Positions 5,573 to 27,500 of a stretch of 64,000 nt of DNA are shown here, one piece after another. The stretch is taken from positions 5,600,001-5,664,000 of the forward strand of contig OZ241986.1 in NCBI GenBank assembly GCA_965204375.1. Reading direction: 5' to 3'. Source of the DNA: Candidatus Latescibacterota bacterium (GTDB lineage Bacteria > Latescibacterota > UBA2968). A program made the translations under genes and the position numbers. Every line of letters starts with the position of its first letter. Position 1 is the first letter of the stretch. The notes beneath the pieces were generated by a model. That model made no database searches. It was not told where the DNA came from and saw only the letters and a program-made list of their open reading frames with translations.

Positions 5573-5686
5573 ACGATTCTCCTGTTTGTTACAAATATAC
5601 AAAAAAAAGAGACCAAGACAAAGGGCGAGCTAATTGGTCATTCACAAGGTCCTCCTACAACAAGGACATATAACAAAGGAATACAC

Positions 5687-12670: not shown

Positions 12671-14719
12671 ATGGCAAATAATTCGAGTACCCGTGCGGAT
12701 TTTGGTGAACATATCGGTTTTATCTGGTCCATTGCGGAACTTCTGCGGGGTAATTACAAGCAATCGGAGTATGGGAAGGTGGTGCTGCCGTTCACGGTTT
12801 TGCGACGGCTCGATTGCGTGCTCGTGCCGACAAAAGACGCTGTGCAGGCGCAGTTGGAAAATTTGCCTGAGAATATTGACGAGACGATGCGCGAAACCAT
12901 GCTCAATATGGCGAGTGAAAATAATTTTCACAATACCAGTCCGTTTACCTTTGAGAAGTTGCTGGATGATCCCGATAATATCGCTGCGAATTTGAACAAT
13001 ATGATTAACGGGTTTTCGTATGATGCGCGTGATATTTTTATCGATCGGTTTAATCTGCCCGAGCAGATTGCGCGGCTTGACCGGGATAATTTGCTCTATC
13101 TGATCGTCAGTCGCTTTGCACAGGCAGATTTGCATCCGGATCGCGTTTCCAATCTGCAGATGGGCTATATTTTTGAAGAACTCATCCGTAGGTTTTCCGA
13201 GCAGAGCAATGAGACGGCTGGCGAGCATTTTACCCCTCGTGAAGTTATCCGGTTGATGGTCAATCTTCTGTTTTTAGAGGATGAGGCCGCGCTTACCCAG
13301 CGGGGTATTATTCGCAAGTTGTATGATCCGGCGTGTGGCACGGGGGGAATGCTTTCTATTGCGGAGGAGTATCTCAGAGAACTCAATCCAGAAGCCAGTT
13401 TGATCGTGTATGGGCAGGAGTTGAATGATGAAAGTTATGCGACCTGTAAATCAGATATGATGATCAAGGGACAAGATGCGAAGAATATTCATCCCGGCAA
13501 TAGTTTTACAGAGGATGGCCTTCCCGATGAGCAATTCGACTATATGTTGTCCAATCCGCCGTTTGGGGTGGATTGGAAGAAGGTGGCATCTGAGATTAAG
13601 GATGAAGCCAATCTCTTCGGTTATAAGGGACGCTTTGGCGCGGGTCTTCCGCGTGTTAGCGATGGTTCTTTGCTTTTTGTGCAGCACATGATTTCAAAGT
13701 TCAATCAGAATGGCGAGTTGTCCCGCCTGGCTGTTGTGCTCAATGGGTCGCCCCTTTTTTCAGGTAGTGCAGGAAGTGGGGAGAGTGAGATCCGTCGCTG
13801 GATTATTGAGAATGATTATTTGGAAGCGATTATAGCTCTGCCTACAGATATGTTTTACAACACGGGTATTGCGACTTATATCTGGATTATTACGAATCAG
13901 AAGACGCCGCAGCGCAAGGGTAAAGTGCAATTGATTGATGCCGCAGATTTTCACGTTGCGATGCGCCAGAGCTTGGGTAGCAAGCGCAAGCAGATTTCCG
14001 ATCAACAGATTGAGGAGATTACGCAGTTGTTTGGCGATTTTGAGGTTGTGGAGGCATGTCCTGAAAAGGGTTTATCCAGAGATCGGGTGAAGATTTTTGA
14101 CAATGTTGACTTTGGGTATCAGCGCATTACTGTCGAACGGCCGCTCAAGCGCAATTTTCAGGTGTGTGAAGATCGCATTGAGATTCTCAAATCGGCGAGG
14201 AGCTTTATTCGTTTGCCGCAGGAACAGCAACAGCGCGTTCTTGAGGTTCTGGCTACGCTTGAGGGTGATTGTCTGTATAAAAATCGTGATGAGTTTATTG
14301 GCATTCTTACGGGTGCTTTTACAGAGGCGCAGGTGAATATTACTACGGCTCAGTTGAAGTTGATTTATCAATCGCTGGGCGAGTATGACGAGACCGCTGA
14401 GGTTTGTACCAATCGCAAGGGCGAGCCAGAACCCGATCCCGATTTGAGGGATTATGAGAATGTGCCGTTGCGAGAGGACATTGATGCGTATTTCGAACGC
14501 GAAATCCAGCCCCATGTGCCCGATGCTTGGATAGATTACAGCAAGACAAAAGTGGGTTATGAAATTCCCTTTAACCGGTATTTCTATACGTTCAAACCGC
14601 CCCGTGCATTAGATGAAATTGGTACGGATTTGATAGGTGTGACGGATAGTATTGTCGAGATGATTGAAGATGTGACGGATGGGATTGTTGAAACGGTTGG
14701 AGGGATTTTGAATGGGTAA
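12671..14719 (+). CDS. hsdM: type I restriction-modification methyltransferase subunit
   Basis: IWSIAELLRG, GEHFTPREV, DPACGTGGM, NPPF, DMFYNTGI. Confidence 0.97.
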   Translation: MANNSSTRADFGEHIGFIWSIAELLRGNYKQSEYGKVVLPFTVLRRLDCVLVPTKDAVQAQLENLPENIDETMRETMLNMASENNFHNTSPFTFEKLLDDPDNIAANLNNMINGFSYDARDIFIDRFNLPEQIARLDRDNLLYLIVSRFAQADLHPDRVSNLQMGYIFEELIRRFSEQSNETAGEHFTPREVIRLMVNLLFLEDEAALTQRGIIRKLYDPACGTGGMLSIAEEYLRELNPEASLIVYGQELNDESYATCKSDMMIKGQDAKNIHPGNSFTEDGLPDEQFDYMLSNPPFGVDWKKVASEIKDEANLFGYKGRFGAGLPRVSDGSLLFVQHMISKFNQNGELSRLAVVLNGSPLFSGSAGSGESEIRRWIIENDYLEAIIALPTDMFYNTGIATYIWIITNQKTPQRKGKVQLIDAADFHVAMRQSLGSKRKQISDQQIEEITQLFGDFEVVEACPEKGLSRDRVKIFDNVDFGYQRITVERPLKRNFQVCEDRIEILKSARSFIRLPQEQQQRVLEVLATLEGDCLYKNRDEFIGILTGAFTEAQVNITTAQLKLIYQSLGEYDETAEVCTNRKGEPEPDPDLRDYENVPLREDIDAYFEREIQPHVPDAWIDYSKTKVGYEIPFNRYFYTFKPPRALDEIGTDLIGVTDSIVEMIEDVTDGIVETVGGILNG

Positions 14720-14820: not shown

Positions 14821-15408
14821 ATGCGATATGATCCTAAACACCATCGCCGTTCAATTCGTTTGAAGGGGTTCGATTATACTCGGGAAGGTGCGTATTTCGT
14901 GACGATTTGTACCCAAAATCAGGCGTGTCTGTTCGGCGAAATTGTGAACGGACAGATGCAGTTGAGCGATGTGGGTGAGGTCGCCGATACATGTTGGCGG
15001 GCTATTCCCGAACATTTTCCCAGGGTTGTATTAGATGCCTTTGTGATTATGCCGAATCATGTGCATGGTATCATTTGGATAGGGCTAGCAAATAGGGTGA
15101 ATGTAGGGGCGAAAAATCTTTCGCCCCTACCGCCCCCACCACCCCGACCATCCCAACGGGACACATCGGCATTTCGGTCGCCATCGAAAACGGTCGGTTC
15201 CATTGTGCGCGGTTTCAAAATTGGCGTTACCAAATGGGTGCGGTCAAACAAAAATTTCTATACCGTATGGCAACGCAATTATTACGAACACATCATCCGG
15301 AATGACACCGCCCTGAACCGCCTTAGACAATATATTACAGACAATCCGGCACGCTGGGAGGATGACCGAGAAAACCCCATCCATCACAGCAAAGGACATA
15401 CATCATGA
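14821..15408 (+). mobile_element. REP-associated tyrosine (HUH, Y1) transposase, RAYT
   Basis: RRSIRLKGFDY...YFVTICT, MPNHVH (HUH), WQRNYYEHIIR, YI..NP.RW. Confidence 0.92.
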
Positions 15409-15519
15409 TTCATACCATCAGACCCAAGACCAGTGCCGTAGGGGCGAACAATGCGGGTGAATTGGGTAATGTTGAGGCGAATGATGCAAATGTAGGGGCG
15501 AAAAACCTTTCGCCCCGTG

Positions 15520-15589
15520 CGTAGATTTACACGCCAAAATTTGTTTCGGGTGCGGCAATTTTACACAACCTATCGGGACGATGAAGAAG
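15520..15589 (+). pseudogene. fragment of a YhcG/DUF1016-like N-terminal domain
   Basis: RRFTRQNLFRVRQFYTTYRDDE resembles the GF.R.NL.RMRQFY..Y signature; bounded by REPs on both sides. Confidence 0.55.
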
Positions 15590-15648
15590 GTAGGGGCGAG
15601 GCATGCCTCGCCCGATTTGCAATGCGAGTCCGCCGAGGAGAACGACAC

Positions 15649-16929
15649 ATGAGCTTTAAGAAGTATGAAGCATATAAGGAGAGTGGGGTTGAGTGGTTGG
15701 GAGAAGTGCCGAAGCATTGGGTGATTGGAAAAGTGAAATATGTTACTGAAAACTTGGATAAATCCAGAGTTCCTTTAAGCTCTCTGGAACGTGGAAAAAG
15801 ACCGGGTATATATCCCTATTATGGTGCATCAGGAATCATAGATTACATTGATGACTACCTATTCGACGAGGATACCATATTGTTTGGCGAAGATGGTGCA
15901 AATCTTTTGGCTCGCTCTACGCCACTTGCTTTTCTTGCCACGGGAAAATATTGGGTTAACAATCACGCCCATGTCCTTAAGGCAAAGGATGGTCTTAATC
16001 GCTTTTGGGTTATGGTCTTAGAAAATATTGATATTACACCCGTAGTAAGTGGTTCTGCTCAACCGAAATTAACATCAGAAGCATTGGGCAATTTGAATGT
16101 TGTTTATCCACCAAGTATTGATGAACGTCAAGAAATTCTCACATTCCTCGATAAAGAAACGATAAAGATCGACACCCTCATTGACAAGCAAGAGCAATTG
16201 ATCGCACTGCTTCAGGAAAAGCGACAGGCGGTCATTTCACATGCCGTTACCAGAGGGTTGGACCCGAATGTGAGGATGAAAGACAGTGGGATTGAATGGT
16301 TGGGTGAGGTGCCGGCGCATTGGGAGGTCTCCCTCCTCAAACGGTGGTATCAGGTCACATTGGGCAAGATGCTCAAGTCCAAACAAACATCACCTGATGA
16401 AACTGAAGATCCTTACCTGAGAGCAGCAAATATCCATTGGCAGGGTGTGGATATGACTGATGTCAAACGCATGTGGTTCACGCCAGAAGAAAAGAAGAAA
16501 CTGAAACTTTATAGAGATGATTTGTTGGTCAGCGAGGGCGGTGATGTTGGCCGAAGTTCGCTTTGGAATGAGGAGATTGAAGACTGTTATATTCAGAACT
16601 CAATCAATCGCATTAGAGCACGCGAGGATGCAGACACGCGGTTTCTTTTTTACTGGATGTATTTCATCAAGCACGCGGACTACATAGATATGATCTGCAA
16701 TAAAGCAACCATTGCCCATTTTACCGTTGAAAAGGTTGAGGCGACCCCATGCGTGTATCTACCATTGGAAGAACAAAAGCAAATCGCTGCGTTTCTTGAT
16801 AGCGAAACAACGAAAATCGATACTCTCATTGAAAAATGTGAAACGGCGATTGAGCTACTCAAAGAACGCCGCACCGCGCTGATTTCTGCTGCGGTGACGG
16901 GGAAGATTGATGTGCGGGATGCAGGCTAA
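15649..16929 (+). CDS. hsdS: type I R-M specificity subunit
   Basis: Two conserved repeats (YKESGVEWLGEVPKHW and MKDSGIEWLGEVPAHW), two TRDs and the ALISAAVTGKIDVR end; GAGGAG RBS before ATG 15649. Confidence 0.96.
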   Translation: MSFKKYEAYKESGVEWLGEVPKHWVIGKVKYVTENLDKSRVPLSSLERGKRPGIYPYYGASGIIDYIDDYLFDEDTILFGEDGANLLARSTPLAFLATGKYWVNNHAHVLKAKDGLNRFWVMVLENIDITPVVSGSAQPKLTSEALGNLNVVYPPSIDERQEILTFLDKETIKIDTLIDKQEQLIALLQEKRQAVISHAVTRGLDPNVRMKDSGIEWLGEVPAHWEVSLLKRWYQVTLGKMLKSKQTSPDETEDPYLRAANIHWQGVDMTDVKRMWFTPEEKKKLKLYRDDLLVSEGGDVGRSSLWNEEIEDCYIQNSINRIRAREDADTRFLFYWMYFIKHADYIDMICNKATIAHFTVEKVEATPCVYLPLEEQKQIAAFLDSETTKIDTLIEKCETAIELLKERRTALISAAVTGKIDVRDAG

Positions 16930-16943
16930 AGAGGCAGGGTAGT

Positions 16944-18581
16944 TTAAAGGTTGAAGTGATCAGCGATTGCATCCAGTTTCTCGCTTACTTCTGGGTGAAT
17001 TTCCTCTTTTGTCATTTGCTCGGCAATTTGGTAGTAGTCGTTTTCTTGTACGTCTATTTCCGATTCCTGCATGATTTTGGAAAGAATATTCTTTGCCTTG
17101 GTATCTTGCAAATAATCCGATGGGCTGAAAGGATCTTCATACAATGCAGGAGGGAATTGCTGCCTCATATAATTATCTGCTCTGTCTGCTGCTTCTTGTC
17201 CGCTGACGCTTTTCACAAAACGTACGATAGATTTGGGATGAATAAGATAGCTTTCAATTTCGTAACGGCCCCAGTGCATCCGTGCCAATCCATTTTGTAA
17301 ATTTTTCGGGTCTGTATTGACCTCACGTCCATCGCTGTCACGCAATTCTATGCCAGGGATACCTTGTTGTACCAATTTCAATGCTTCAAAGTGTCTTTCC
17401 GCCTTTATGCCATCTACGTCTGGATGCGTCTGGTAAATGGTTGGCTTCCAAAAAGGTTTATCAAGAAATGAGAAGAGGGGATGAGCCAATTTTTCTGCCC
17501 AAACGCGCAGAATGGCGATGTCGGAGTGTCCTTCCACGTATAAGATTCCTGGTGCGGTGAGTGCTAAGGCGATATCTACATTGTCTAGCGCGGTGAGGGA
17601 AGTAATCAAGGCGACACGTTCCGATTTGTCAGCGGCAATTTGGGGTCGTCCATCCATCAAGACGCATAAACGCTGTGGAGCAACGGCGTTAATAAGTCGC
17701 TCTGAATGCGTGGCAATAATCAGTTGTGTTCCGTTTTGATGGGCATAGTCGCGCAAATCTCGATACATTTTGTCCTGTAACAAGATATGCAAATGTGCAT
17801 CAGGCTCGTCAATTAACAATACCGATGCTTCTTTCGCCAGTAAAGCAGAGTAAACCAATAAAACCTGTAGAAACCCACTTGCCGCACTGCTCAAGTCATA
17901 AGTTTGGCCTTGCTCCGAATGACGGTAAGGGGCGTATATTTCAGCACCGGCACTTGGAGATAATAACTCATAACCAAAAAAAGACTTGACGACTTCTTGC
18001 AACTTCTGCCATTTCTGGGCATCCTGGCTGACGGCAAGAAGGAGATTACGCAACACGCTACCCGCCTGCGCTCGTGCTAATCGAGCTGGGATAACTACGG
18101 GATCAAAAGGAGACTCTTTAATCTCCACACCTGAGAGGGGCGGGATATAAGTGGGAATGAGCGGATCATTGATATACCGCTCTAGATCATTTTCGCTCAC
18201 ATCCTTCGCAGGACGAATAACCGCCAACTCTGTCTCTTTATAGACGATCTCAAAGCCGATTTTCCATTGGTTCGTATGCAACCAGACAGATGCGGATTCT
18301 TGAACGTTCTTATCTTTCCAAAGATGGCCAAAGTCTGCCAGTGGAACCGAATGGAAGCTCAACAAGTTAAGGTTAATTGGGGGATAGTTCTCGTCTTCTT
18401 CTCGGGCCAGATCCGGGTTATTTTCCGACCACTGGAAGGCGATTTCCGACCAGGCAGCGATAGCCTGGAGAAGCGATGTCTTACCAGAGTTGTTTGGTCC
18501 GGCGATGACGAGATGGGCTGGAAGATCAAATTCCAGGTGCTCGAATTTTTTAAAGTTATTGATGAGGACTCTACGGATCAT
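16944..18581 (-). CDS. ABC/AAA ATPase plus TOPRIM protein (OLD-family-like ATP-dependent nuclease)
   Basis: GPNNSGKT Walker A, ASG signature region, LLIDEPDAHLH Walker B, ATHS H-loop, TOPRIM YVEGHSD and RDSD (DxD), YEIESY. Confidence 0.85.
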   Translation of the reverse strand: MIRRVLINNFKKFEHLEFDLPAHLVIAGPNNSGKTSLLQAIAAWSEIAFQWSENNPDLAREEDENYPPINLNLLSFHSVPLADFGHLWKDKNVQESASVWLHTNQWKIGFEIVYKETELAVIRPAKDVSENDLERYINDPLIPTYIPPLSGVEIKESPFDPVVIPARLARAQAGSVLRNLLLAVSQDAQKWQKLQEVVKSFFGYELLSPSAGAEIYAPYRHSEQGQTYDLSSAASGFLQVLLVYSALLAKEASVLLIDEPDAHLHILLQDKMYRDLRDYAHQNGTQLIIATHSERLINAVAPQRLCVLMDGRPQIAADKSERVALITSLTALDNVDIALALTAPGILYVEGHSDIAILRVWAEKLAHPLFSFLDKPFWKPTIYQTHPDVDGIKAERHFEALKLVQQGIPGIELRDSDGREVNTDPKNLQNGLARMHWGRYEIESYLIHPKSIVRFVKSVSGQEAADRADNYMRQQFPPALYEDPFSPSDYLQDTKAKNILSKIMQESEIDVQENDYYQIAEQMTKEEIHPEVSEKLDAIADHFNL

Positions 18582-18936
18582 GTTTGTTCACCTCTGGCAC
18601 AAAAAGTGGAGGGGCTTCGCTCCAGACAATGCACCCTTCTCGTAGCCAGTAATGACATCGACAGGGGAGCCCGGTCACATGAACCGAGGGTAATAGCGAA
18701 ATTCGTCCGTCCGAGTGTTCTTTTATGCGCCACTTTTTGACTACCTGGGGCGATACATCAAGGTGAATAATCTGTTGGCATGCTTGACGTGGACAAACAA
18801 TTGCCGCATAGAAGGGATGGTCACGCCCCCCAATGATATACACTGTATTTTTCTCAGTGTTTTCCGGTAAATCCTCTACCCACTTTGTGCGGTAAGGATG
18901 GAAACGCGCCCACAAATTGAATAACCATCTAATCAT
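18571..18936 (-). CDS. DUF6527-like small Cys/His metal-binding protein
   Basis: CPRQAC...W...ISLLPSV...CRCHYWLREG.I.W pattern; overlaps both neighbours. Confidence 0.75.
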   Translation of the reverse strand: MIRWLFNLWARFHPYRTKWVEDLPENTEKNTVYIIGGRDHPFYAAIVCPRQACQQIIHLDVSPQVVKKWRIKEHSDGRISLLPSVHVTGLPCRCHYWLREGCIVWSEAPPLFVPEVNKHDP

Positions 18937-20320
18937 GACTAATGTTGTTTTTTACAAGCAAACTTCTGTCGCCTGTTCCCTTATATCGTTTTAGTAACGG
19001 ATGCGGAATGCCCGTGTCCATATCGTTTTCATAGCACCCATGCACCAGACGAAACCTTTGAGTTCCAAATTCGTAGTTGTCGTCAAAACGGTAGGTGTGA
19101 ATCCTGGCCATAAAATCATTAAAAGCCATGCACGCCGCTTGCATATTGACAGACATGACAGCGGGTTGTTCCTCGCCGACTGCCGCCAAATATCCGGCCA
19201 CGCGCTGTTCCTGGTAGTATGATGGGTCTTTTCTCTGCCAATTTTCCGCTGTTACCTGTTCCATTGTGTACGCGCCTCGCGAAAGCAAGCTTCCGCCTTC
19301 CGGGTGGATGTAATGAGACACAGCATCAGCAGAGGTAATGCCACCTTTGCCATCGGCGTCGATATCAACGCCTACATCAAAGTATGGGATCAAGTACGCA
19401 CTCGCCAGGCAATCCAAATGGTATCTGCCAAAGGCGGAATCCACACAACCAAAAATCACATCGCAATCCACCAAAGCCTCTACAACATCCGGTGAGTCTG
19501 TTAATCCTTGGAGGGCTTTGACTTCTGTCTCCATTCCCATTGCCTGAATTGCCTGTTTAATTGCCAATACTTTCGGCTGTTTCTTACTCGCAGCGTTCAT
19601 TGTGCTGTTGATAATGCGGTTCAGATTTTTCTCTTCTAAAATATCGTTATCCACTATTACCAACTCTCCTACACAATTGCGGACGAGAAGTTCTATTATG
19701 ATGCTACCAGTGCCTGAGCAGCCGATAACTCCCACCCTCATATTGTGCAACAACTCCAGCGTTCCTTTACCAAAGGTTTGTGACAGCTTACTCTGGTACG
19801 CAGTGTGTTTTCTTTTTTTGCTCTGCTTCCAGAGGCGGATATTGTTGCCGACTACGGAAACCGTCGCCAGGTTAGCGAACTTACCATGCGCGTCAACGGT
19901 GCGTGCATTGATTGCGCCATTCGACAACATGATTGCGGACCCATTTGGGCGATTGTCGTCAAACCAGTTACAAACCGAAGGAAATAACTCTCGATCGTTT
20001 AGATCATCAATTTCTGAAAATCGGCCGTATCCCTTAGGATGTGAATGAATGGTAACGATAGACTGACCGCATAGGTCTATTTCGCTAATTTTTTCTGGTG
20101 GAAGGTGATCGCCAAAAGGCCAGGAAACAAAGTTTTTCTTTCTCCTGGAATCACTATGCGGCAAAGATAAAACATCCGTGGCCAGAAGACGGTGGGACTG
20201 TTTTCCCGTTCCTTGATTACACAGTAAAATCGCGGCGGCTTCCAGTCCATCGCCGGGAAACAGATGCTTAAAAACAGCCTCATGGAGGCACTCAGTCATC
20301 GCCAGAATGGCGGAGTTCAT
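18929..20320 (-). CDS. JAB/MPN+ peptidase fused to a ThiF/E1-like adenylation domain
   Basis: E...IHSHP...FSEIDD (JAMM motif); VIGCSGTGS, DNDILEEKNLNR, GCVDS..GR (E1 motifs); TGATG overlap with the upstream stop. Confidence 0.9.
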   Translation of the reverse strand: MNSAILAMTECLHEAVFKHLFPGDGLEAAAILLCNQGTGKQSHRLLATDVLSLPHSDSRRKKNFVSWPFGDHLPPEKISEIDLCGQSIVTIHSHPKGYGRFSEIDDLNDRELFPSVCNWFDDNRPNGSAIMLSNGAINARTVDAHGKFANLATVSVVGNNIRLWKQSKKRKHTAYQSKLSQTFGKGTLELLHNMRVGVIGCSGTGSIIIELLVRNCVGELVIVDNDILEEKNLNRIINSTMNAASKKQPKVLAIKQAIQAMGMETEVKALQGLTDSPDVVEALVDCDVIFGCVDSAFGRYHLDCLASAYLIPYFDVGVDIDADGKGGITSADAVSHYIHPEGGSLLSRGAYTMEQVTAENWQRKDPSYYQEQRVAGYLAAVGEEQPAVMSVNMQAACMAFNDFMARIHTYRFDDNYEFGTQRFRLVHGCYENDMDTGIPHPLLKRYKGTGDRSLLVKNNISHD

Positions 20321-21423
20321 CACCCTATCGCACCTTTCATCTCATTTTTGACATACTCAATGTGCGTCACAAGGGTATCAATTCCCGGTCTCCACTGATA
20401 GTGACGCGACCATCGTTGCCAGGTCCGACCAAAATGGATTTCAGACGCCAGCGCACCTATTGTCCCGCCATTCGCTGTATTGAGTGGTGGGGCAAAATAG
20501 AACATGTCCAAAGCCGATCCGGGATAACCGCTTGGAATGAGTAACATCAGTGTAGATTTTTCTATCGTATAGCCGTTCGGGATAGGGAAATCCTCTATGA
20601 GCAAACCAAATTTTCCGTTACCTTCAGATATTTTTTTCCATTTGGATGGAAAATTCCCATCCAAATACTCAGTATCTTCCGGCAACAGGCCATAGAGGGC
20701 ACCTTGTTGCGCTTGTCGTCGAACGGTTTCAAAGCGCTCAATGCCAGGACAAGCCAGGTTGACCTTCTCATCGGCATCGATTTTTTCTCTTTTACCGCCG
20801 CGTAGTTTCTGGTTGAGCGACCATTCATCAAAGTTTTTCCCGGCCAAGGCCAAAATTTCGGTTCCTATGATATCCTCGGTGGCCACGGTGTACTTGTCTC
20901 CGTCTATGCGGATGCGATATTTTTTTCCTTTGGGTGGACGGCGTCCGTGCTTTCCACACTCCTCTATATCGATTGAATCATCGCCATTGATGATGGGAGG
21001 GATAACAAAATACGAGTCCTCATCCTGAATAACAATTGTTATATCATCCGCAATTTCCACATCCACGCCGTCTTCGATATCCGCAAACAGGCGTCCCTGA
21101 GGGAATTTATCATCTAGTTCTTTTAGTGCTTTACCGGTAACTTTTGCAGTCGGTAGAGCAATGCGGGAACCGTTGAACTCAGGCTGTATTTCATTCCGTA
21201 ATAGGGGATTATTCTCTATACAACTTTCTCCAACCACAAATTTTTCTCCGCCGTGGATGATCAGATATTCCTTTGGCAAAAGAGGAATGTCTATGCCGTC
21301 TTCACGGTTCAAAAAAAGTCGTTTTCCGTTGCAGTCGGCAAGTTCACAAAGAACGGTAACGGGAATAAATCCCGAATGGATGGGCTTTTCCTGCCCGTCA
21401 ATTTGGATAAAAAGTTGATTCAT
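20320..21423 (-). CDS. multi-ubiquitin (3x Ubl) domain fused to a prokaryotic E2/UBC-like domain
   Basis: Three ~70-aa beta-grasp-like repeats (I.IDG/FNG...G..L..L...E.F) ending in QAQQG, then P.GY...IP.GYP...DMFYF.P...WQRWSRH..WRPG.D.L.TH; AAGGAG RBS before ATG 21423. Confidence 0.85.
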   Translation of the reverse strand: MNQLFIQIDGQEKPIHSGFIPVTVLCELADCNGKRLFLNREDGIDIPLLPKEYLIIHGGEKFVVGESCIENNPLLRNEIQPEFNGSRIALPTAKVTGKALKELDDKFPQGRLFADIEDGVDVEIADDITIVIQDEDSYFVIPPIINGDDSIDIEECGKHGRRPPKGKKYRIRIDGDKYTVATEDIIGTEILALAGKNFDEWSLNQKLRGGKREKIDADEKVNLACPGIERFETVRRQAQQGALYGLLPEDTEYLDGNFPSKWKKISEGNGKFGLLIEDFPIPNGYTIEKSTLMLLIPSGYPGSALDMFYFAPPLNTANGGTIGALASEIHFGRTWQRWSRHYQWRPGIDTLVTHIEYVKNEMKGAIG

Positions 21424-21439
21424 GACTATAAACTCCTTA

Positions 21440-21538
21440 TGTTCTTCAGTGATAGATGGTTTTTGATCTATCAAGATTGCTTGACATTTTACAATTTTCG
21501 TCACAATTTTCGTGACGATATGTCATAATTATTATGAC
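21440..21538. promoter_or_regulatory. divergent promoter region with palindromic operators
   Basis: GTCACAATTTTCGTGAC (21500-21516) and GTCATAATTATTATGAC (21522-21538); extra inverted repeat tgatagat-N8-atctatca (21440-21463); TTGACA at 21481. Confidence 0.7.
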
Positions 21539-21570
21539 GTTCTGTATCAATTTAAAGGATTTACATCACT

Positions 21571-21909
21571 ATGTCAACCCCTACTACTGGTATATTTCCC
21601 GATAATCTGAAAAAGATACGAGAAATCAAAGGATTAAGCCAGACTGAACTTGCAAAAAGATCTGGACTTCAGCCATCCGCAGTCTCACATTTTGAGACGG
21701 GTAGGCGGGCACCTTCCTTTGATAACTTAAAGCGTTTGGCAGACACGCTTGAGGTCACAACTGACTTTCTTATAGGTCGTGAAATTGATCCAACTACGTC
21801 TGGCCCGACCTTAGAAAGCATTTTCAGAAATGCTCAAGAAATGGCAGATGATGACCGTCAGAAATTGGCTGAGTTCGCGGAATTTCTTGCCAGCAAAAAG
21901 AAATCGTAG
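21571..21909 (+). CDS. XRE-family HTH transcriptional regulator
   Basis: LKKIREIKGLSQTELAKRSGLQPSAVSHFETGRRAPS...LADTLEVTTDFL. Confidence 0.93.
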   Translation: MSTPTTGIFPDNLKKIREIKGLSQTELAKRSGLQPSAVSHFETGRRAPSFDNLKRLADTLEVTTDFLIGREIDPTTSGPTLESIFRNAQEMADDDRQKLAEFAEFLASKKKS

Positions 21910-21924
21910 TGGTAGGAGTAAATT

Positions 21925-22773
21925 GTGAATCAAAGATACCGGTTATTGCAAGCAGAAGCTCATGCTGAAAATTTGGTGAAACAGCTTGGTATTGCATCGC
22001 TTCCTATCAACCCTATTGAGATTGCCGAGCAACATGAAATCAGGTGTAAGCCTGAAAAGATACAGGGATTTTCTGGTTGTTTGATAAAACGAGGAGACGT
22101 TTTCGGCATTCTTTATTCATCTAAATTCAACAATGAAGGGTTTATTCGATTTACTGTGGCACACGAATTAGGGCACTATTTCTTACCAGGCCATCCAGAA
22201 CTTCTATTTCCAACAGGTAATGGTACTCACTATTCTCACAACGGATTTACAGCCCGTGACTTTCACGAGCTTGAGGCCGACCACTTTGCCGCAGGGTTAC
22301 TCATGCCTCGACATTTGTTTGGAGTAGCACTGGGGCAAGAGACAATTCCCGGATTTTATGCAATTGAATCACTTTCCGAAAAATGTAAAACATCAATTAC
22401 TGCTACTGCTATCCGATATGCGACCTTTGCAGATTATCCCGTTGCTCTCATTGTAAGTTCCAATAATAGAGTTGAGTACTCGTTTATGTCTGACACGATG
22501 AAAACAAAAATTCGAGGAGCCTCGTGGCTGAAAAAAGGAGAGGGCATACCTCCACAAAGCCAAACCGCTGCATTCAATGAAGATCAAAACAACATTCTAT
22601 CGGGTGCAAAAGAGGAAAGTAGCTCCTACTTGGATGCCTGGTTTGCAGGAGCACAGTCGGAGGAAATCAATGAAGATGTGATTGGACTGGGTGGCTATGG
22701 AAAGACCCTGACGGTTCTATTTTCCGAAGAACCACTAACAGATGATAACGAATTAAATTTTGGAGATTATTGA
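21925..22773 (+). CDS. ImmA/IrrE-family zinc metallopeptidase
   Basis: RFTVAHELGH (HExxH), ELEADHFAAGLLMP. Confidence 0.92.
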   Translation: MNQRYRLLQAEAHAENLVKQLGIASLPINPIEIAEQHEIRCKPEKIQGFSGCLIKRGDVFGILYSSKFNNEGFIRFTVAHELGHYFLPGHPELLFPTGNGTHYSHNGFTARDFHELEADHFAAGLLMPRHLFGVALGQETIPGFYAIESLSEKCKTSITATAIRYATFADYPVALIVSSNNRVEYSFMSDTMKTKIRGASWLKKGEGIPPQSQTAAFNEDQNNILSGAKEESSSYLDAWFAGAQSEEINEDVIGLGGYGKTLTVLFSEEPLTDDNELNFGDY

Positions 22774-22864
22774 TTACAAACTAAGTGAATTTATTCATGA
22801 TTTGATTGCAGAATCGGGACAGGGAAAAGGCGTCTCAACTGATATACTCCGTGAAGGGGTAAAA

Positions 22865-23314
22865 ATGCGACAAACCATTGAGGCTACGATTGATGAACAG
22901 GGCAATGTGCGGTTATTACAGCCCATCCAGTTGTCAAAACCACGACGCGCTTATGTGACAATTCTCGCTGATGAGCGAGATATTCCTGAAACGGCATTGC
23001 TCAGTGAAGCCGCACTTGCCGAAGACTGGAATCGTCCAGAGGAAGACGCCGCTTGGTCACATCTACACCCTGCGCCTGTTCGCCTCGACTGGCGTCAAGT
23101 GCGCTCCGTTGTCGAGGCAGCCGCTTCCGAGTTGAATTGGAATGTTGAAATCTCTATTGATACTGCTGAAAACCTCATTGTCGTGGCTGTGCCAGAGGAC
23201 CAGGACGACTTGATGGTGGAGACTGAGTTTGATTTCTACGCATTGATTATGAATCAATTAGACCAAGATGTCTTTAAGACAATTAATTTCTTTTTCGTTT
23301 CGGATTCTGACTGA
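22865..23314 (+). CDS. antitoxin-like N-terminus fused to an unknown acidic domain
   Basis: MRQTIEATIDEQGNVRLL...LSEAALAEDWNRPEEDAAWSHL normally ends a ~70-aa antitoxin-like protein; here it runs on for ~80 aa. Confidence 0.5.
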   Translation: MRQTIEATIDEQGNVRLLQPIQLSKPRRAYVTILADERDIPETALLSEAALAEDWNRPEEDAAWSHLHPAPVRLDWRQVRSVVEAAASELNWNVEISIDTAENLIVVAVPEDQDDLMVETEFDFYALIMNQLDQDVFKTINFFFVSDSD

Positions 23315-23555: not shown

Positions 23556-24251
23556 TTGGGTCTTGGATTACTTCTTATCCCTACTCTCGGAGGATACTGG
23601 TTTTTGGCAAATCTGTACCTCGCGCGCTACAGTATGCTTCGGGATTCGGGTTACCATGTCTTATTTAAATCTGCTATCGCAGGTTGCTTTTTGGTTGTCG
23701 TTGCACGCTTGATCGTTGTTAGCCTTCTAAATCCCTATCTTCCCTATGTCGGCGAATTTTGGAAGTTCTATGTACCTTTCGATTATTCTGGTACGGTTGC
23801 ATTAAGCCTTCTGTTAGGGCCTCTGTTGCCGATAGTGATCAATCGGCTCTACGGCGCAGAAAAGGCGGCGCAACGGACGGCGATAAGTAATGGCGACCTC
23901 ATCGAACTTTTAATCAGTGAATCCATAGAACGTGAAGAGTTCGTTGAACTCTCGCTAAGAAGCCGGAAATCCTATATTGGTGTGGCTCTTGTGAGTGGAA
24001 TAGCAAGTCATGGAGAATCTGATATTGCACTTATCCCTGTAGCAAGCGGTTATCGAAAAGAAGACACCCACGAGTTAGAAATTACGACTAATTATGCTCC
24101 TGTGCTTTGGGAATTTCTTGAAAAACAAGGGTCAACGGGTCTGGTTTATGAGGATTTTCGGATTGTGATTCCCATGTCCGAAATTGTGTCCGCGCGCATC
24201 TTTGATCCTGATGTGTACGAATTATTTCAGCAAGAAGGATCATCCGAATAG
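23556..24251 (+). CDS. hypothetical membrane protein with N-terminal TM helices and a soluble C-terminal domain
   Basis: AGGAGG RBS with TTG start; about 3 hydrophobic segments, then K.YIG...SGYR..DT...TTNY...F.IVIP..EI.SAR.FD. Confidence 0.7.
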   Translation: MGLGLLLIPTLGGYWFLANLYLARYSMLRDSGYHVLFKSAIAGCFLVVVARLIVVSLLNPYLPYVGEFWKFYVPFDYSGTVALSLLLGPLLPIVINRLYGAEKAAQRTAISNGDLIELLISESIEREEFVELSLRSRKSYIGVALVSGIASHGESDIALIPVASGYRKEDTHELEITTNYAPVLWEFLEKQGSTGLVYEDFRIVIPMSEIVSARIFDPDVYELFQQEGSSE

Positions 24252-24526: not shown

Positions 24527-27500
24527 ATGACCAGAAAACCCACATCTGAAAAAGACTTTGAAGACGCGATTGAAGCGTGGCTGGTAGGTCGCGCTGGATA
24601 TGCCAAAGCCGATAGTCGCCAGTTCGATTCCGAACTCGGTCTGGACAAACACACGTTGCTCGCGTTTCTCAAAGAGACGCAGTCCGATACAATGGACGCG
24701 CTCAAGAGAAGCTATGGCAACGCGGTGGAGGAGGCTGTTGTCAAGCGGATTGCCTCTGAGTGCGATAAGCGCGGGTTGCTCGATGTGGTGCGGAATGGCG
24801 TGCGTGACCGGGGGCAACATCTGCGTCTGGCTTATTTTCGCCCGCCGACCCGTCTGAATGTCGAAACGGAAAAACGCTATAATCAGAATCGCCTCACGGT
24901 GATGCGACAGGTGCGTTATGATGTGGAGAGTAATCATTCGATTGATATGCTCTTGTCGCTCAATGGTCTGCCCATTGCTACGGTCGAACTCAAAAACGCT
25001 TTCACGGGACAGCGTACGGGTCACGCTATTCAGCAATATATCAAGGATCGCGTCCCCACCGTCAGAACCCCTCTTATTCAGTTCAAAAAACGCGCGCTCG
25101 TGCATTTTGCCGTTGATACCGATGACGTGTATATGACGACGCGGCTTTCGGGTGATAAGACTTTCTTCCTGCCTTTTAATACGGGTAATAAAGGTGGTAA
25201 AGGCAATCCCGACGATCACCAGTATCAGACGGGATACAAGACCGGTTATCTCTGGGAAGAAATCTGGCAGCGCGATAGTTGGCTGGATATTATCCACAGG
25301 TTTATCCACCTTCATGTGGAAAAAAGTACCGATATCGCCACGCGCAAAACGACGACCAGAGAAACCCTCATTTTTCCCCGCTATCACCAGCTCACCGCTG
25401 TTCGCAATCTGATTGCAGATACCAGAGCCAAAGGTGTGGGTCACAATTATCTGATTCAGCACAGTGCCGGGTCGGGTAAGACCAATACGATTTCGTGGCT
25501 CGCCCATCAGCTTGCCAGTATCCACGATGATGCGGATGCGCCTATTTTTAATTCGGTTGTGGTTGTTTCCGACCGGCGCAATCTGGATAAGCAGTTGCAG
25601 GATAATATCTATCAGATCGAACACAAGCAGGGTGTGGTTGTCAAAATTGATGAGGACCGCAATTCAAGTGATCTGGCTGATGAACTCAATAAGGGGACAA
25701 AGATCATTATTACGACGCTGCAGAAATTTTCTTTTTTGATGGGCAAGGTGGAGGATCTGTCAGACAGGAAATTTGCGGTGATTGTAGATGAGGCTCATAG
25801 CAGTCAGGGTGGGCGAAGTGCGAGCAATTTACGCGGTGTGTTGGGTGGACTGGAGAAAGCAGAGGCTGAGGAAGAAGATCCGCCCGATATGGAAGATTTG
25901 ATTCTTGCGGAGGCCAAACGTCGAGGGCCACAGCCGAATATCAATTTTTACGCTTTTACGGCAACGCCGAAGCACCGTACGCTCGAGATGTTTGGCGTGC
26001 GCGATGCAGAGGGCAATCCGCAGCCGTTCCATCTTTATGCCATGCGTCAGGGTATTGAAGAGGGTTTTATCCACGATGTGCTCAAGCATTATACCACGTA
26101 CAGGACGTATTACAAATTGTCCAAAGCGATTGAAGACGATCCCGAGGTGGATGAGAGCAAGGCGAAGCGGGCTATTGCGCGGTTTATGAGTTTGCATCCG
26201 CACAATATCGCGCAGAAGACGGAGATTATGGTTGAGCATTTTCGGGCTTTTACCCGTAAGAAGATTAATGGCAATGCGAAGGCGATGGTTGTGACGCGCT
26301 CGCGGTTACATGCGGTGCGCTACAAACAGGCTTTTGAGAAATATATTGAGGCAAGAGGATATACCGGTCTCAAAACGCTTGTGGCGTTTTCTGGAACTGT
26401 TTTCGATCCAGATGTGGAAGATAAGCAGTACACGGAGGCGAGCATGAACGGCATTAGTGAACGAGAATTGCCCGCCTATTTTGCTACGCCCGAATATCAG
26501 ATTTTGATTGTTGCGGAGAAGTATCAGACGGGTTTTGATCAACCTCTTTTGCATACGATGTTCGTCGATAAGCGGCTTGCTGATCTGAAGGCTGTTCAGA
26601 CTCTGTCGCGGCTTAACCGCACGGCGGGTGGGAAGGTAGATACGTTTGTGTTGGATTTTGCCAATGAGATTGACGAGATCAAAGAGGCGTTTAAGCCGTA
26701 TTACGAACAGACGGAGATCGATGAACCGACCGATCCCAATCACCTCTATACGCTGGATGCAAGACTGAAAAGCGAACCTGTGCTGCGCGATGAGGAGATT
26801 GGGGAATTTGCCAGGACCTATTTTAAGCTCCAATCACTTCGAACAAGGGATGATCACGGACAACTCAACAAGTGGGTCGATCCCGCTGTGGAGCGATTCA
26901 AACAATCTTATGGTGTCTCGGGTTCGGATGGGGACGCATACACGGAAGAAGGCGAGATTTTTAAAAGCACCTTGCAGAGCTTTATACGGCTGTATGGCTT
27001 TTTGAGTCAGATTATCGAATGGCAGGATCCCGCGTTGGAGAAGCTCTATGCGTATGCGAGGCATTTGTTCACAAAATTGCCTCGGCGTTCGGGCGAGGGG
27101 ATGTTGGAACTCGACGATGAAGTTGCACTTTCGCACTATCGCAACGAGATGACATTTTCTGGTAGCGGAGCTTTGGAGGTGGGAGACAAAGATTTTGTGC
27201 AGGGCGTGGGTGATGTTGGTACGGCAACGGCCAAAGACGACCATACCGCACCGCTGTCGTCTATTATTGAAGTGATCAACGAGCGGTTTGGCACCAGTTG
27301 GACGGATGAGGATAGATTGTTGTTTGATCAGATTTCAGGCGATATGGTGCGAAATGCACGTCTTGCGGAGCAGGCGCAGGCCAATTCAATAGATCAGTTT
27401 AAGCAGGTTTTTGAACCCGAAGTGATGAAGGCATTTGTTCAACGGCAGGGCAGAAACCAGAAGATTGTGAACGATTTTATGTCTGATAGAGCACTGCGCG

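Follow-up and report, generated by a model that had tools for sequence, protein, structure and literature searches.

Inside a type I restriction-modification (R-M) locus of a Candidatus Latescibacterota bacterium, a bacterial ubiquitination-like operon ends in a gene for a putative ATPase-nuclease. Does the nuclease belong to the conjugation pathway, or is it a second effector expressed with it? The locus was analysed within a 64,000-nucleotide stretch of contig OZ241986.1 (the window) and compared with related loci in genomes, metagenomes and plasmids.

Layout of the locus

Four overlapping genes, BubAB (Ubl-E2), BubCD (JAB-E1), BubE (DUF6527) and an ABC-ATPase-Toprim gene, occupy the minus strand from 16944 to 21423. 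The cassette is divergent to a CapH/CapP pair and is flanked by hsdS and hsdR. The features are:

12671-14719, plus strand: hsdM, type I R-M (PADLOC MTase_I, 9.8e-278)
14821-15408, plus strand: REP-associated tyrosine-transposase-like ORF between hsdM and hsdS (NCBIfam REP_Tyr_transpos, 1.6e-13, below the model cut-off)
15517-16929, plus strand: hsdS (PADLOC Specificity_I, 1.6e-113), likely start near 15649
16944..18581, minus strand: ATPase-Toprim gene, 545 aa; OLD-family ABC ATPase (residues 1 to about 330) and predicted Toprim-plus-helical nuclease domain (about 335-545)
17279..17684, minus strand: segment of the ATPase-Toprim gene resembling a swapped allele (codons about 300-434, linker and first half of Toprim)
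18571..18936, minus strand: BubE, 121 aa; DUF6527 (Pfam PF20137, 1.4e-13)
18929-20320/20323, minus strand: BubCD, 463/464 aa; JAB/JAMM peptidase fused to an E1 adenylation domain (Pfam Prok-JAB, 7e-7; ThiF, 8e-24)
20320-21504, minus strand: BubAB ORF, probable gene 20320..21423; multi-unit Ubl (BubA) fused to E2 (BubB) (Pfam Multi_ubiq, 6e-14; Prok-E2_E, 2.9e-31)
21424..21570, no strand: divergent control region; palindromes as candidate CapH operators, and a sigma-70-like match
21571..21909, plus strand: CapH-type HTH repressor (PADLOC capH, 3.1e-26; Pfam HTH_3, 1.4e-17)
21925..22773, plus strand: CapP-type M78/IrrE metallopeptidase with HELGH (PADLOC capP, 1.3e-62, residues 9-267; Pfam Peptidase_M78, 3.9e-6)
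22760..23314, plus strand: 184-aa ORF of unassigned function, overlapping the capP stop
23556..24251, plus strand: 231-aa ORF with a hydrophobic N-terminus; DUF6338-like, as a lead only
24527-27553, plus strand: hsdR, type I R-M (Pfam HSDR_N, SWI2_SNF2, ResIII and T1R_D3-like; PADLOC REase_I, 3.8e-31)

Read directly from the sequence, the BubAB stop shares 1 bp with the BubCD ATG (TGATG; 4 bp if the BubCD GTG start is used); the overlap is 8 bp between BubCD and BubE and 11 bp between BubE and ATPase-Toprim. An earlier note on this DNA had described this gene order and these overlaps, the position between hsdS and hsdR (both flanks have PADLOC or Pfam matches), the domains and the CapH/CapP-type regulator pair, and all are borne out. 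It had also reported no CD-NTase, and none of the 12 ORFs scanned with PADLOC matched a CD-NTase model. The hsdS and ATPase-Toprim genes are convergent, with stops 14 bp apart. Neither small ORF matched Pfam or PADLOC; that of 184 aa is kept only in the nearest relative of the cassette, L004 (88% match), and that of 231 aa resembles, by Atlas feature score (0.96), a cluster with DUF6338 in 32% of its members.

The Bub core and its regulators

The true start of BubAB is probably the ATG at 21423 (367 aa, as against 394 aa for the long ORF), since AAGGAG lies 8 nt upstream and homologues begin there. BubA ends in RRQAQQ-G268 and BubB carries a WSRH motif (S366/H368; numbering of the 394-aa ORF); G268, S366 and H368 are invariant among ten cassette homologues. 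BubA is a separate gene in four cassettes (L009, L013, L055 and L065), where it ends one to five residues past the Gly matching G268. The three Ubl units claimed in the earlier note are plausible, a count that rests on one confident Multi_ubiq match, to the third unit (4.4e-12; unit 2, 0.054; unit 1, none); profile-profile self-comparison of the units gave 5e-4, 0.023 and 0.072.

BubCD likely starts at the ATG at 20320, as its homologues are 463 aa long. Its JAB residues (E28, H93-x-H95 and D106) and E1 features (GCSGTGS loop, NLNR with R236, and Tyr378 in a crossover loop that has no Cys; 464-aa numbering) are invariant in a 25-sequence alignment. The gene called DUF6527-like in the earlier note does match DUF6527, but is more than that: it encodes BubE, described in a 2024 preprint (bioRxiv 10.1101/2024.11.21.623953) as a Ser-His protease that removes conjugates. 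S84, H95, four Cys (C48, C53, C92 and C94) and a hydrophobic N-terminal extension are present, and the BubE residues are invariant among 11 cassette homologues. Positions in BubE were mapped by comparison with BubE of a Citrobacter koseri plasmid and with the residues that the preprint names, and the BubCD residues were mapped as well. All the residues given as catalytic in the preprint occur here and are invariant in homologues. From these residues and the domain matches, BubAB-BubCD-BubE with CapH/CapP is, at the level of sequence, a Type I Bub operon in the sense of the preprint, where CapH and CapP accompany 168 of 544 Bub operons.

The control region contains a candidate CapH operator, the palindrome GTCATAAT-a-ATTATGAC at 21522-21538, and a second candidate, TCGTCAC-n7-GTGACGA, at about 21500-21520, which is kept in L004. 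The best sigma-70-like match in the 8.2 kb scanned (21577..21549, 10/12) is directed at bubAB. Promoter-like sites overall were not above shuffles (10 observed against 13.1), so it is the location alone that is suggestive of a bubAB promoter.

The Bub preprints (among them bioRxiv 10.1101/2024.11.21.623953) report a response of CapH/CapP to DNA damage and allow for a role of Bub either in immunity or in some other stress response. The locus might therefore encode a DNA-damage or stress module rather than an antiviral one, with Ubl tagging and the Toprim nuclease directed at the host machinery for DNA repair or replication. A precedent outside defence exists in archaeal Cran1, an OLD class reported to have its role in the cell cycle (PMC12796447). 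However, the patchy distribution (the cassette is shared by one of 20 same-genus genomes), the location within an R-M locus adjoining an AbiLi-like ATPase gene and the allele-swapped segment of the ATPase gene (below) are all typical of defence cargo, and make a non-antiviral role improbable.

The fourth gene

The ATPase-Toprim ATG, with GAGGTG 8 nt upstream, lies within the overlap with BubE. The protein matches Pfam AAA_15 (1e-21) and AAA_21 (1.9e-21) and PADLOC NsnB (1e-26), AriAB (5.7e-24), AriA (2.8e-23) and GajA (8e-22). Its ATPase part has Walker A GPNNSGKT (K34), signature S235-G236, Walker B D258-E259 and H292; predicted Toprim residues are E350, D354, D415-x-D417 and E441/E443, followed by K495. 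The ABC motifs and Toprim acidic residues form invariant columns in a 21-sequence alignment; DxD is replaced by DxN in some homologues of the Bub-linked clade.

The full model (pLDDT 84) matches PtuA and retron ATPases over residues 1-331 (VIA Z about 20). The C-terminal domain (pLDDT 93) is predicted to fold like the Toprim nucleases of OLD and PARIS AriB (TM about 0.5, Z 9-11), its top structural matches being AriB (8v46_D, Z 10.8, 192 aligned) and Bp OLD (6nk8_B, Z 9.1); Foldseek gave Xcc OLD (6njv, E 3.4e-4). Searches of Pfam, NCBIfam and sequence-to-PDB did not detect Toprim, and the TOPRIM assignment of the earlier note is retained because of the predicted fold and conserved acidic residues.

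One segment (17279..17684) had no blastn nucleotide match in L004, although the rest of the cassette is 93% identical. Protein identity is 73-75% in the segment region versus 94-98% for the Bub genes. Two sequence types are apparent in this region of the alignment, and the segment looks like a swapped allele.

Linkage of the ATPase-Toprim gene to Bub

BubAB, BubCD and BubE lie directly upstream of the gene, on the same strand, in 14 of the 80 genome loci found with this ATPase. The BubE stop/ATPase start overlap has the same spacing in the 13 of these cassettes with BubE detected and in two metagenome cassettes. Order and overlap recur in 16 cassettes, down to 40% ATPase identity, and identity to the window of BubCD correlates with that of the ATPase (Spearman 0.84, 16 cassettes). 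The metagenome-assembled genomes concerned are labelled as at least seven phyla (Binatota, Latescibacterota, Thermodesulfobacteriota, Nitrospirota, Rhodothermota, Chloroflexota and Pseudomonadota). In a midpoint-rooted tree from a quick search, the Bub-linked ATPases fall into a single clade (18 rows, 15 of them Bub-linked and three not seen with Bub), separated with SH-aLRT 100 from 52 rows linked to type III R-M; the tree omits 11 of the 80 loci, for which no intact ATPase ORF > 450 aa was called. An RNA-library contig (run X17, 90-95% alike) spanning 17923-19544 crosses the ATPase/BubE/BubCD junctions; it is a weak hint of expression across them, as it derives from relatives and may be contaminating DNA.

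The ATPase-Toprim gene could be a chance arrival next to Bub within a defence island, the two sharing nothing, since defence genes cluster and this ATPase family occurs in other contexts too. Recurrence of order and overlap in co-diverging cassettes of at least seven phyla speaks against chance, and the 11-bp overlap leaves no intergenic room for a promoter. The conservation data all but refute accidental neighbourhood, which is highly improbable.

Co-occurrence with homologous Ubl operons, which the earlier note had set as a test, is thus real: 14 of 80 genome loci show it, as do 2 of 56 assessable metagenome Bub loci and 1 of 40 relatives. Nevertheless, the gene is not a general Bub component, because it is missing from the other 54 metagenome operons and from the plasmids of PLSDB: 172 plasmid records there have a BubCD-like match, but plasmid ATPases in the database reach no more than 27% identity.

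Is the nuclease controlled by conjugation?

The earlier note proposed a coupling of Ubl conjugation to a nuclease effector. BubA might be conjugated to ATPase-Toprim, or to a partner restraining it, and so switch the nuclease on or off, with BubE resetting it and all four genes forming one pathway. The overlap kept in 15 cassettes, the co-divergence of BubCD and ATPase, and the single clade of Bub-linked ATPases are consistent with this. A Bub target encoded in the operon would also be an economical idea. However, most Bub operons work without this gene, and the sister clade operates where there is no Ubl machinery: its genes are flanked by mod and res in type III R-M operons and keep the same catalytic motifs. 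An MTase_III-type Mod and/or ResIII-type gene adjoins the ATPase in 51 of the 80 loci (both in 35). In the Bub-linked and type III R-M clades alike, 78 positions, including all catalytic motifs, are ≥ 90% conserved; set against these sisters, the Bub-linked ATPases showed neither a conserved patch nor a conserved lysine peculiar to Bub, only 14 scattered Bub-specific positions. Coupling thus found no direct support, and such control, though possible, is doubtful.

The contexts of the family raise another explanation. ATPase-Toprim may act as a guard, as in PARIS, sensing a phage counter-defence protein (for instance a DNA mimic that blocks restriction, or a protein inhibiting the host operon) and then unleashing an abortive nuclease activity. 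Such a role would account for the presence of the family in R-M, BREX and Bub loci alike. In its favour are AriB as best structural match of the predicted C-terminal domain, the AriAB and AriA model matches, and the sister clade within type III R-M operons. A Nostoc plasmid carries a 27%-identical relative within a BREX-1 system, flanked by pglX and pglZ, and type I hsd genes are beside the window cassette and four others (L004, L007, L011 and L012). Against it, other PADLOC models match about as well (see below), and R-M embedding may only mirror clustering in defence islands. A PARIS-like guard is unlikely on this evidence; it would refine, and is compatible with, an autonomous module.

A probable portable nuclease module as second arm

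On balance, we modestly favour a Type I Bub operon that is controlled by a divergent CapH/CapP switch and has acquired, at its 3' end, a translationally coupled gene for an OLD-family ABC-ATPase-Toprim nuclease. The nuclease itself would be the portable, self-contained module, found in one clade with Bub and in the sister clade with type III R-M. Autonomy of the nuclease is a preference, not a finding, because overlap conservation and BubCD/ATPase co-divergence would also be expected under mechanistic dependence.

CapH would repress the divergent promoters until DNA damage or infection lets CapP inactivate it, and bubAB-bubCD-bubE-ATPase-Toprim would then be transcribed as a single unit. The BubCD JAB domain would cleave BubAB after Gly268, and the E1 domain would adenylate BubA, passing it through oxyesters of Tyr378 and then BubB Ser366 onto target lysines; BubE would strip the conjugates. 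CapP inactivation of CapH, JAB cleavage, the E1 relay and conjugate removal have each been shown elsewhere (bioRxiv 10.1101/2024.11.21.623953). ATPase-Toprim, from the same expression burst, may cut nucleic acid (DNA or tRNA, like its OLD and PARIS relatives). It would be a second effector arm, linked to Bub by expression and not necessarily by chemistry.

Comparison with known systems

The earlier note regarded the combination as uncharacterised. A literature search, including Table S1 of PMC11601596 and covering sources available in part, found no paper describing Bub with ATPase-Toprim, but the three-gene core with CapH/CapP is the described Type I Bub.

For conjugation gating a nuclease, the comparison is type II CBASS, in which Cap2/Cap3 prime the CD-NTase. 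For a guard it is PARIS, which is triggered by an anti-restriction protein; models for PtuA, GajA, NsnB and mad3 match the fourth gene about as strongly as AriA/AriAB, and therefore indicate no specific PARIS membership. With the Bub core and CapH/CapP already known, the conserved fourth gene is the new part, and an OLD-type ATPase-nuclease may be the missing killing arm of Bub.

Operon layout and flanking island

The ubiquitination-like locus that the earlier note described between hsdS and hsdR is real, and its interpretation was right in part. Four minus-strand genes face the divergent pair capH and capP inside a type I restriction-modification (R-M) locus.

Features of the cassette and of the island around it
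12671-14719: hsdM, type I R-M
14821-15408, plus strand: ORF resembling a REP-associated tyrosine transposase, between hsdM and hsdS (NCBIfam 1.6e-13, below cut-off)
End at 16929: hsdS, 14 bp from the convergent ATPase gene
16944-18581, minus strand: ATPase-Toprim gene, 545 aa (AAA_15/AAA_21 1e-21; PADLOC NsnB, AriAB, AriA, GajA, PtuA, mad3)
18571-18936, minus strand: BubE gene, 121 aa (DUF6527, PF20137, 1.4e-13)
18929-20323, minus strand: BubCD gene, 464-aa ORF (Prok-JAB 7e-7 and ThiF 8e-24)
20320-21504, minus strand: BubAB gene, 394-aa ORF (Multi_ubiq 6e-14 and Prok-E2_E 2.9e-31)
21571-21909, plus strand: capH, 112 aa (PADLOC capH 3.1e-26)
21925-22773, plus strand: capP, 282 aa (PADLOC capP 1.3e-62; HELGH motif)
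22760-23314: unassigned ORF between capP and hsdR
23556-24251, plus strand: ORF of 231 aa with a hydrophobic N-terminus, between capP and hsdR (no Pfam or PADLOC match)
24527-27553: hsdR, type I R-M

Direct reading of the junctions gave the same overlaps as the earlier note: 1 bp (TGATG, with the E1 gene read from its ATG), 8 bp and 11 bp. The likely start of bubAB is the ATG at 21423, which yields a protein of 367 aa; it is preceded 8 nt upstream by AAGGAG, homologues begin at the same ATG, and an 8-8-8 inverted repeat is present in the interval from 21423 to the GTG upstream. There is no space for a separate promoter of the ATPase-Toprim gene and GAGGTG is found 8 nt ahead of its ATG, within bubE, so its product is probably made together with the Bub proteins.

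The divergent region between capH and bubAB is 147 bp long. It contains two palindromes as well as the best promoter-like match of the region, directed at bubAB, and is likely to be a CapH-controlled switch. The pair has the marks of CapH/CapP, being a small HTH repressor and an M78/IrrE-type metallopeptidase divergent from the operon (PADLOC, motif). The cassette is covered by RNA-library contigs from relatives (90-95% alike), one of which spans the ATPase/BubE/BubCD junctions. As such libraries may hold DNA, these contigs (from runs in which the share of sampled words was only 0.06-0.16) give just a weak hint of transcription. In one of these runs (X20, record 23), a 12-kb contig from a relative connects the hsdS end with capH (window 16931 to 21627) by 2987 other letters where the window has the 4695-bp ATPase-Bub cassette; thus, different cargo may adjoin the same CapH/CapP pair in that relative.

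Directly past hsdR, a 401-aa ABC ATPase (27674-28879, plus strand) matches PADLOC AbiLi (1.2e-56), adding another putative defence-type gene to the island. By language-model features, the ORF at 23556-24251 is nearest to clusters partly with DUF6338 (score 0.96). The window contains no tRNA gene, hence no tRNA-linked integration site was seen in it.

The Bub core and its active-site residues

The available text of a 2024 preprint (Ye, Gong, Chambers, Corbett, bioRxiv 10.1101/2024.11.21.623953) describes the Type I Bub operon, formerly the 6E.1 or DUF6527 operon, as BubAB (a Ubl-E2 fusion), BubCD (a JAB peptidase-E1 fusion) and BubE, for which it demonstrates Ser-His protease activity; the papers on DUF6527 include two 2024 preprints, both from one group. 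According to the same source, the relay forms an oxyester on a Tyr of the E1 crossover loop (Y370) and then one on a Ser of the E2 (S333/H335), and CapH and CapP accompany 168 of 544 Bub operons (31%). The residues named in the preprint were mapped onto the window proteins by way of the Type I Bub operon of a Citrobacter koseri plasmid and the cassette homologues. All of them are present and are invariant among the homologues aligned (BubAB residue numbers refer to the 394-aa ORF).

In BubA, the C-terminal Gly268 is invariant in 10 homologues and aligns with the Gly of the C. koseri plasmid BubAB. BubA is a separate gene in four related cassettes, where it ends 1-5 residues past the conserved Gly, an independent mark of the processing site. 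These split cassettes (loci L009, L013, L055 and L065, about 5150-6265 in each) have a BubB ORF of 129 aa, and the clade therefore holds both fused and split Ubl-E2 forms. Of the three Ubl units proposed in the earlier note, the C-terminal one is a clear Multi_ubiq domain; the other two are marginal, both by Pfam on the separated units and by hhalign self-comparison. The WSRH motif of BubB (S366/H368) is invariant in 10 homologues and aligns with the C. koseri WSRH, with Ser/His instead of Cys.

Throughout 25 aligned sequences, BubCD retains E28, H93/H95, D106, R236 (NLNR) and the loop Tyr (Tyr378 in 464-aa and Y377 in 463-aa numbering), and the crossover loop as read contains no Cys. From its GY context, the loop Tyr probably corresponds to Y370 of the preprint, with the C. 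koseri numbering shifted. BubE S84, H95, C48, C53, C92 and C94 are invariant among the cassette homologues; its first Cys pair is spaced CPxxxC, not CxCxC. Judged by its residues, the core belongs to a system already described: it is a Type I Bub operon, for which Ubl processing and oxyester conjugation are predicted.

The ATPase-Toprim protein

The earlier note called the fourth protein an OLD-like ATPase-TOPRIM, and both its invariant motifs and its predicted C-terminal fold bear this out. In an alignment of 21 sequences, the Walker A lysine (K34), signature S235-G236, Walker B D258-E259 and H-loop H292 are invariant, as are Glu350, Asp354, Asp415, Glu441, Glu443, Lys495 and Lys497 in the C-terminal third. 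The second Asp of the DxD motif, Asp417, is Asn in three of the 21.

When the full-length protein was modelled (pLDDT 84), its fold matches were to PtuA and retron ATPases, Thermus OLD and GajA, and residues 1-331 reach VIA Z 19-20 to PtuA/retron ATPases and 17-19 to Rad50/SMC heads. Pfam and NCBIfam models gave no Toprim match and a profile search against PDB sequences matched the ATPase part only. As full-length fold searches were also taken up by ABC-ATPase matches, the C-terminal domain (residues 330-545) was folded alone (pLDDT 93). With this model, the top seven Foldseek matches in the PDB were all OLD C-terminal/Toprim regions or PARIS AriB (best 6njv, E 3.4e-4, TM about 0.5). A VIA search, independent of Foldseek, gave OLD-family or retron-effector nucleases in six of its top seven rows: AriB (8v46_D, Z 10.8, 192 residues aligned), Burkholderia OLD (Z 9.1), the retron Eco2 and Eco8 effectors, Thermus OLD and GajA. 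The uncharacterised Pyrococcus protein PH0156 ranked third (Z 7.8) and rows after the top seven had Z of 5.7 or lower. A complex prediction with the BubB E2 domain, BubE and ATPase-Toprim gave ipSAE of 0.00-0.01 with no controls run, a result that speaks on neither side of the question of binding.

Compared with the cassette of the nearest relative (L004), the island is 93-95% identical in nucleotides except for the target-recognition regions of hsdS and codons ~300-434 of the ATPase-Toprim gene, where segment 17279-17684 has no nucleotide match in the relative (L004:8897-9277). Two sequence types of this segment recur across homologues. The segment, comprising the linker and the first half of the Toprim domain, looks like an allele swap.

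Occurrence of the fourth gene with Bub operons elsewhere

The earlier note had made its reading depend on the ATPase-Toprim gene accompanying Ubl operons in other organisms, and it does so in both genomes and metagenomes. Many contigs in the homologue lists of the ATPase and BubCD are identical in length. In a genome scan (one genome per species, ATPase alignment as query), the nearest 80 ATPase loci included 14 with BubAB, BubCD and BubE directly upstream on the same strand (tblastn and ORF clustering). BubE ends 4-11 nt inside the ATPase start in these Bub-linked loci. Where ATPase identity was at least 46%, 12 of 14 loci were Bub-linked; the two others are L012, with only 258 bp upstream, and L006, whose ATPase is fragmented and preceded by a Dsr1-like gene. 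The other two Bub-linked loci have an ATPase identity of 40-42%. The Bub-ATPase cassettes come from metagenome-assembled genomes labelled as seven different phyla.

A reverse metagenome scan with BubCD gave the nearest 80 Type I Bub loci, 56 of which have at least 600 bp past BubE. The ATPase was present in only two of these 56, both with the highest BubCD identity (74-76%). On plasmids, a BubCD-like match was found in 172 PLSDB records, and PLSDB held no ATPase closer than 27% identity. Among 40 relatives of this genome, one (G002) has the same cassette and nine others have BubCD-like matches with no adjacent ATPase match. In the viral contigs searched, the best ATPase relative was 29% identical and none fell in the Bub clade, giving no sign of a phage-borne cassette in that collection. 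Across 16 cassettes, BubCD and ATPase identities to the window are correlated (Spearman 0.84). Taken together, the genome, metagenome, plasmid and relative surveys and this co-divergence indicate that the fourth gene is a stable member of one Bub clade and not a general Bub component.

Other Bub operons were seen along the way. On the Citrobacter koseri IncHI2 conjugative plasmid pK820-1 (L085, NZ_CP136753.1, 314180-316988), the Type I Bub operon has three genes and lacks the fourth. Copies almost identical to it (BubCD 35.5% identical to that of the window) are found on many enterobacterial PLSDB plasmids. Three metagenome Type I Bub operons (L089:3460-6270, L090 and L091:7773-10583; BubCD 57% identical) have another fourth gene 41 bp past BubE, encoding a ResIII-helicase-like protein of 936 aa, which PADLOC REase_III matches weakly; the downstream partners taken up by Bub operons may therefore vary. 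The window's own genome contains, outside the window, a second Bub operon of the other type (L083, G000:C1:4039000-4058000), with a DUF6791-ThiF protein (409 aa, E2-E1 fusion), DUF6527 (144 aa) and an IrrE/HTH pair. Its neighbours are a Mutator-family transposase and two UvrA-like genes, and a SocA/Panacea-domain gene follows BubE with no ATPase-Toprim.

Sister clade and origin of the nuclease module

The ATPase gene adjoins one or both of two mod/res-type genes in 51 of the 80 genome loci, and both in 35. The upstream gene encodes a protein of about 920 aa (PADLOC MTase_III 2e-151), the downstream gene one of about 1040 aa that combines a ResIII helicase with a TnsA-like endonuclease domain, and the genes overlap each other by 4 bp (for example L017:4-7105 and L020:5161-12775, from the set L017-L082). 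By its gene content, this arrangement is the mod-X-res of a type III R-M-like operon.

A quick maximum-likelihood tree (IQ-TREE, 70 rows, midpoint root; 11 loci without an intact ORF call excluded) splits the ATPases, with SH-aLRT 100, into a Bub clade of 18 rows (15 Bub-linked) and a type III R-M clade of 52 rows. When 15 Bub-clade proteins were compared with 32 R-M-clade proteins, 78 positions were at least 90% conserved in both clades, including every catalytic motif; only 14 positions, scattered and mostly conservative, were specific to the Bub clade.

A 27%-identical ATPase lies between annotated pglX and pglZ of BREX-1 on plasmid pNsp_c of Nostoc sp. ATCC 53789 (L084:6001-7878, NZ_CP046706.1). 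Its PADLOC AriAB score is 2e-32. Cassettes stand beside type I hsd genes in the window, its nearest relative (L004) and loci L007, L011 and L012. The picture suggested by these neighbourhoods is of a self-contained nuclease module that enters operons of other defence systems.

Proposed working of the cassette

According to the accessible preprint text (bioRxiv 10.1101/2024.11.21.623953), DNA damage or infection leads CapH and CapP to derepress linked operons, BubAB is trimmed by BubCD and conjugates are stripped off by BubE. In the window, a CapH-controlled switch in the 147-bp divergent region would govern the operon, the ATPase-Toprim protein would be co-produced with the Bub proteins and it would then serve as a nucleic-acid-cutting arm. 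Its coupling to Bub could lie either in shared expression or in conjugation itself. Direct control of the nuclease by BubA conjugation is kept alive by the long-kept BubE/ATPase overlap and by the BubCD/ATPase co-divergence. Against it, each partner works in sister lineages that lack the other and the ATPase shows no visible Bub-specific surface, so that this form of control is doubtful. For the same reasons, we favour, at somewhat better than even chances, an autonomous module coupled to Bub at the level of expression.

A PARIS-like 'guard' role of the ATPase-Toprim protein would fit its AriB-like fold and its embedding in R-M and BREX loci; this would be a refinement of the autonomous module, not an alternative to it. 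A bolder proposal, and a rather improbable one, is that Bub immunity in this clade has its missing effector in the ATPase-Toprim protein, which would be armed or disarmed by BubA conjugation and its reversal by BubE, the same module being a plug-in 'last resort' arm for type III R-M, BREX and Bub sensors. If true, the four-gene cassette would be the first Bub system with a readable output, and OLD nucleases under ubiquitin-like modification would form a new context class.

Literature and significance

Full-text searches gave no link between Bub/6E/DUF6527 operons and OLD/Toprim proteins, and an earlier mention in subscription journals is possible. The words Toprim and nuclease are absent from the main texts of both Bub preprints, ATPase is absent from the text of the second and effector from that of the first (bioRxiv 10.1101/2024.11.21.623953). 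Table S1 of the Bub preprint (PMC11601596) has no column or word on Toprim, nuclease or ATPase. The accessible portions of two OLD-family papers (PMC10568477, PMC12796447) do not use the words ubiquitin, restriction-modification or methyltransferase in that sense, nor was a mod-OLD-res arrangement found described in them. Toprim is absent likewise from the accessible part of Iyer et al. 2006 (PMC1779556), and literature on 'multiubiquitin' gave eukaryotic ubiquitin papers only.

Bub has a striking biochemistry, in which oxyesters on Tyr and Ser form the relays and the serine protease is a new one, and its targets and biological role are not known according to the available text of the 2024 preprints (bioRxiv 10.1101/2024.11.21.623953). 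A clade that has kept a nuclease gene over long evolution offers a concrete output to test for, namely toxicity, DNA/tRNA cleavage or phage restriction, and closely related three-gene and four-gene Bub operons form a natural experiment. OLD nucleases gain two contexts not found described, the 3' end of a Bub operon and the position between mod and res of type III R-M. The locus is also an example of the modular shuffling of regulators (CapH/CapP), sensors and effectors inside R-M loci.

Comparison with known systems

The locus shares E1/E2/JAB chemistry and a defence-island context with type II CBASS (Cap2/Cap3) and Bil. It differs in the fusion of its Ubl to the E2 and in BubE, a component that only Bub has. 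Bub E1 and E2 also lack a catalytic Cys and use Tyr/Ser oxyesters, as described in the accessible preprint text (bioRxiv 10.1101/2024.11.21.623953). PADLOC CBASS 'E1-E2' models match the ThiF region weakly (about 1e-10). The earlier note's view that this is not CBASS holds, since PADLOC CD-NTase models gave no match among the 12 ORFs scanned between 12671 and 27553.

MADS, in the part of its description available (PMC13662399), likewise places an OLD-related ATPase-nuclease module, MAD3-MAD4, within methylation-based defence, which parallels the mod-X-res sister clade. The nuclease is fused in the fourth gene, whereas MAD4 is separate, and no other MADS genes occur here. The matches (PADLOC mad3 4.6e-17; NCBIfam MADS3 1.9e-9, far below cut-off) cover the ATPase termini only.

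With PARIS, the fourth gene shares AriB as its best C-terminal structural match, PADLOC matches (AriAB 5.7e-24, AriA 2.8e-23; PtuA, GajA, NsnB and mad3 scores are similar in size) and relatives within restriction/BREX loci. In contrast to PARIS it encodes one fused polypeptide, and the AriAB model matched only over positions 279-539 of 694.

The OLD family and the fourth gene have in common an N-terminal ABC ATPase with an inserted domain, a C-terminal Toprim and helical domain, and the conserved Glu, DxD and further acidic residues; the predicted fold matches Ts OLD, Bp/Xcc OLD, GajA and the retron Eco8/Eco2 effectors. OLD classes are defined by gene neighbourhood in the accessible parts of PMC10568477 and PMC12796447: alone (class 1), with GajB (2), in retrons (3), as split AriA/AriB (4) or archaeal (5). 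The fourth gene falls outside all five, its neighbours being BubE, BubCD and BubAB: it is not alone, has no UvrD-like GajB and no retron RT, is not split like AriA/AriB and is not in an archaeal membrane-protein operon. ORF calls, Pfam and PADLOC revealed no adjacent helicase, RT or split nuclease gene at the locus.

The closest system is Type I Bub, with which the window shares the three genes, their order and fusions, the BubA C-terminal Gly, the E2 Ser/His, the JAB residues, the E1 Arg, the crossover-loop Tyr without Cys, the BubE dyad and four Cys, and the divergent CapH and CapP. The identity of its BubCD to Bub E1s carried on plasmids, enterobacterial ones included, is only about 35-44%. 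It differs from Type I Bub in possessing an OLD-family ATPase-Toprim gene that overlaps the bubE stop.
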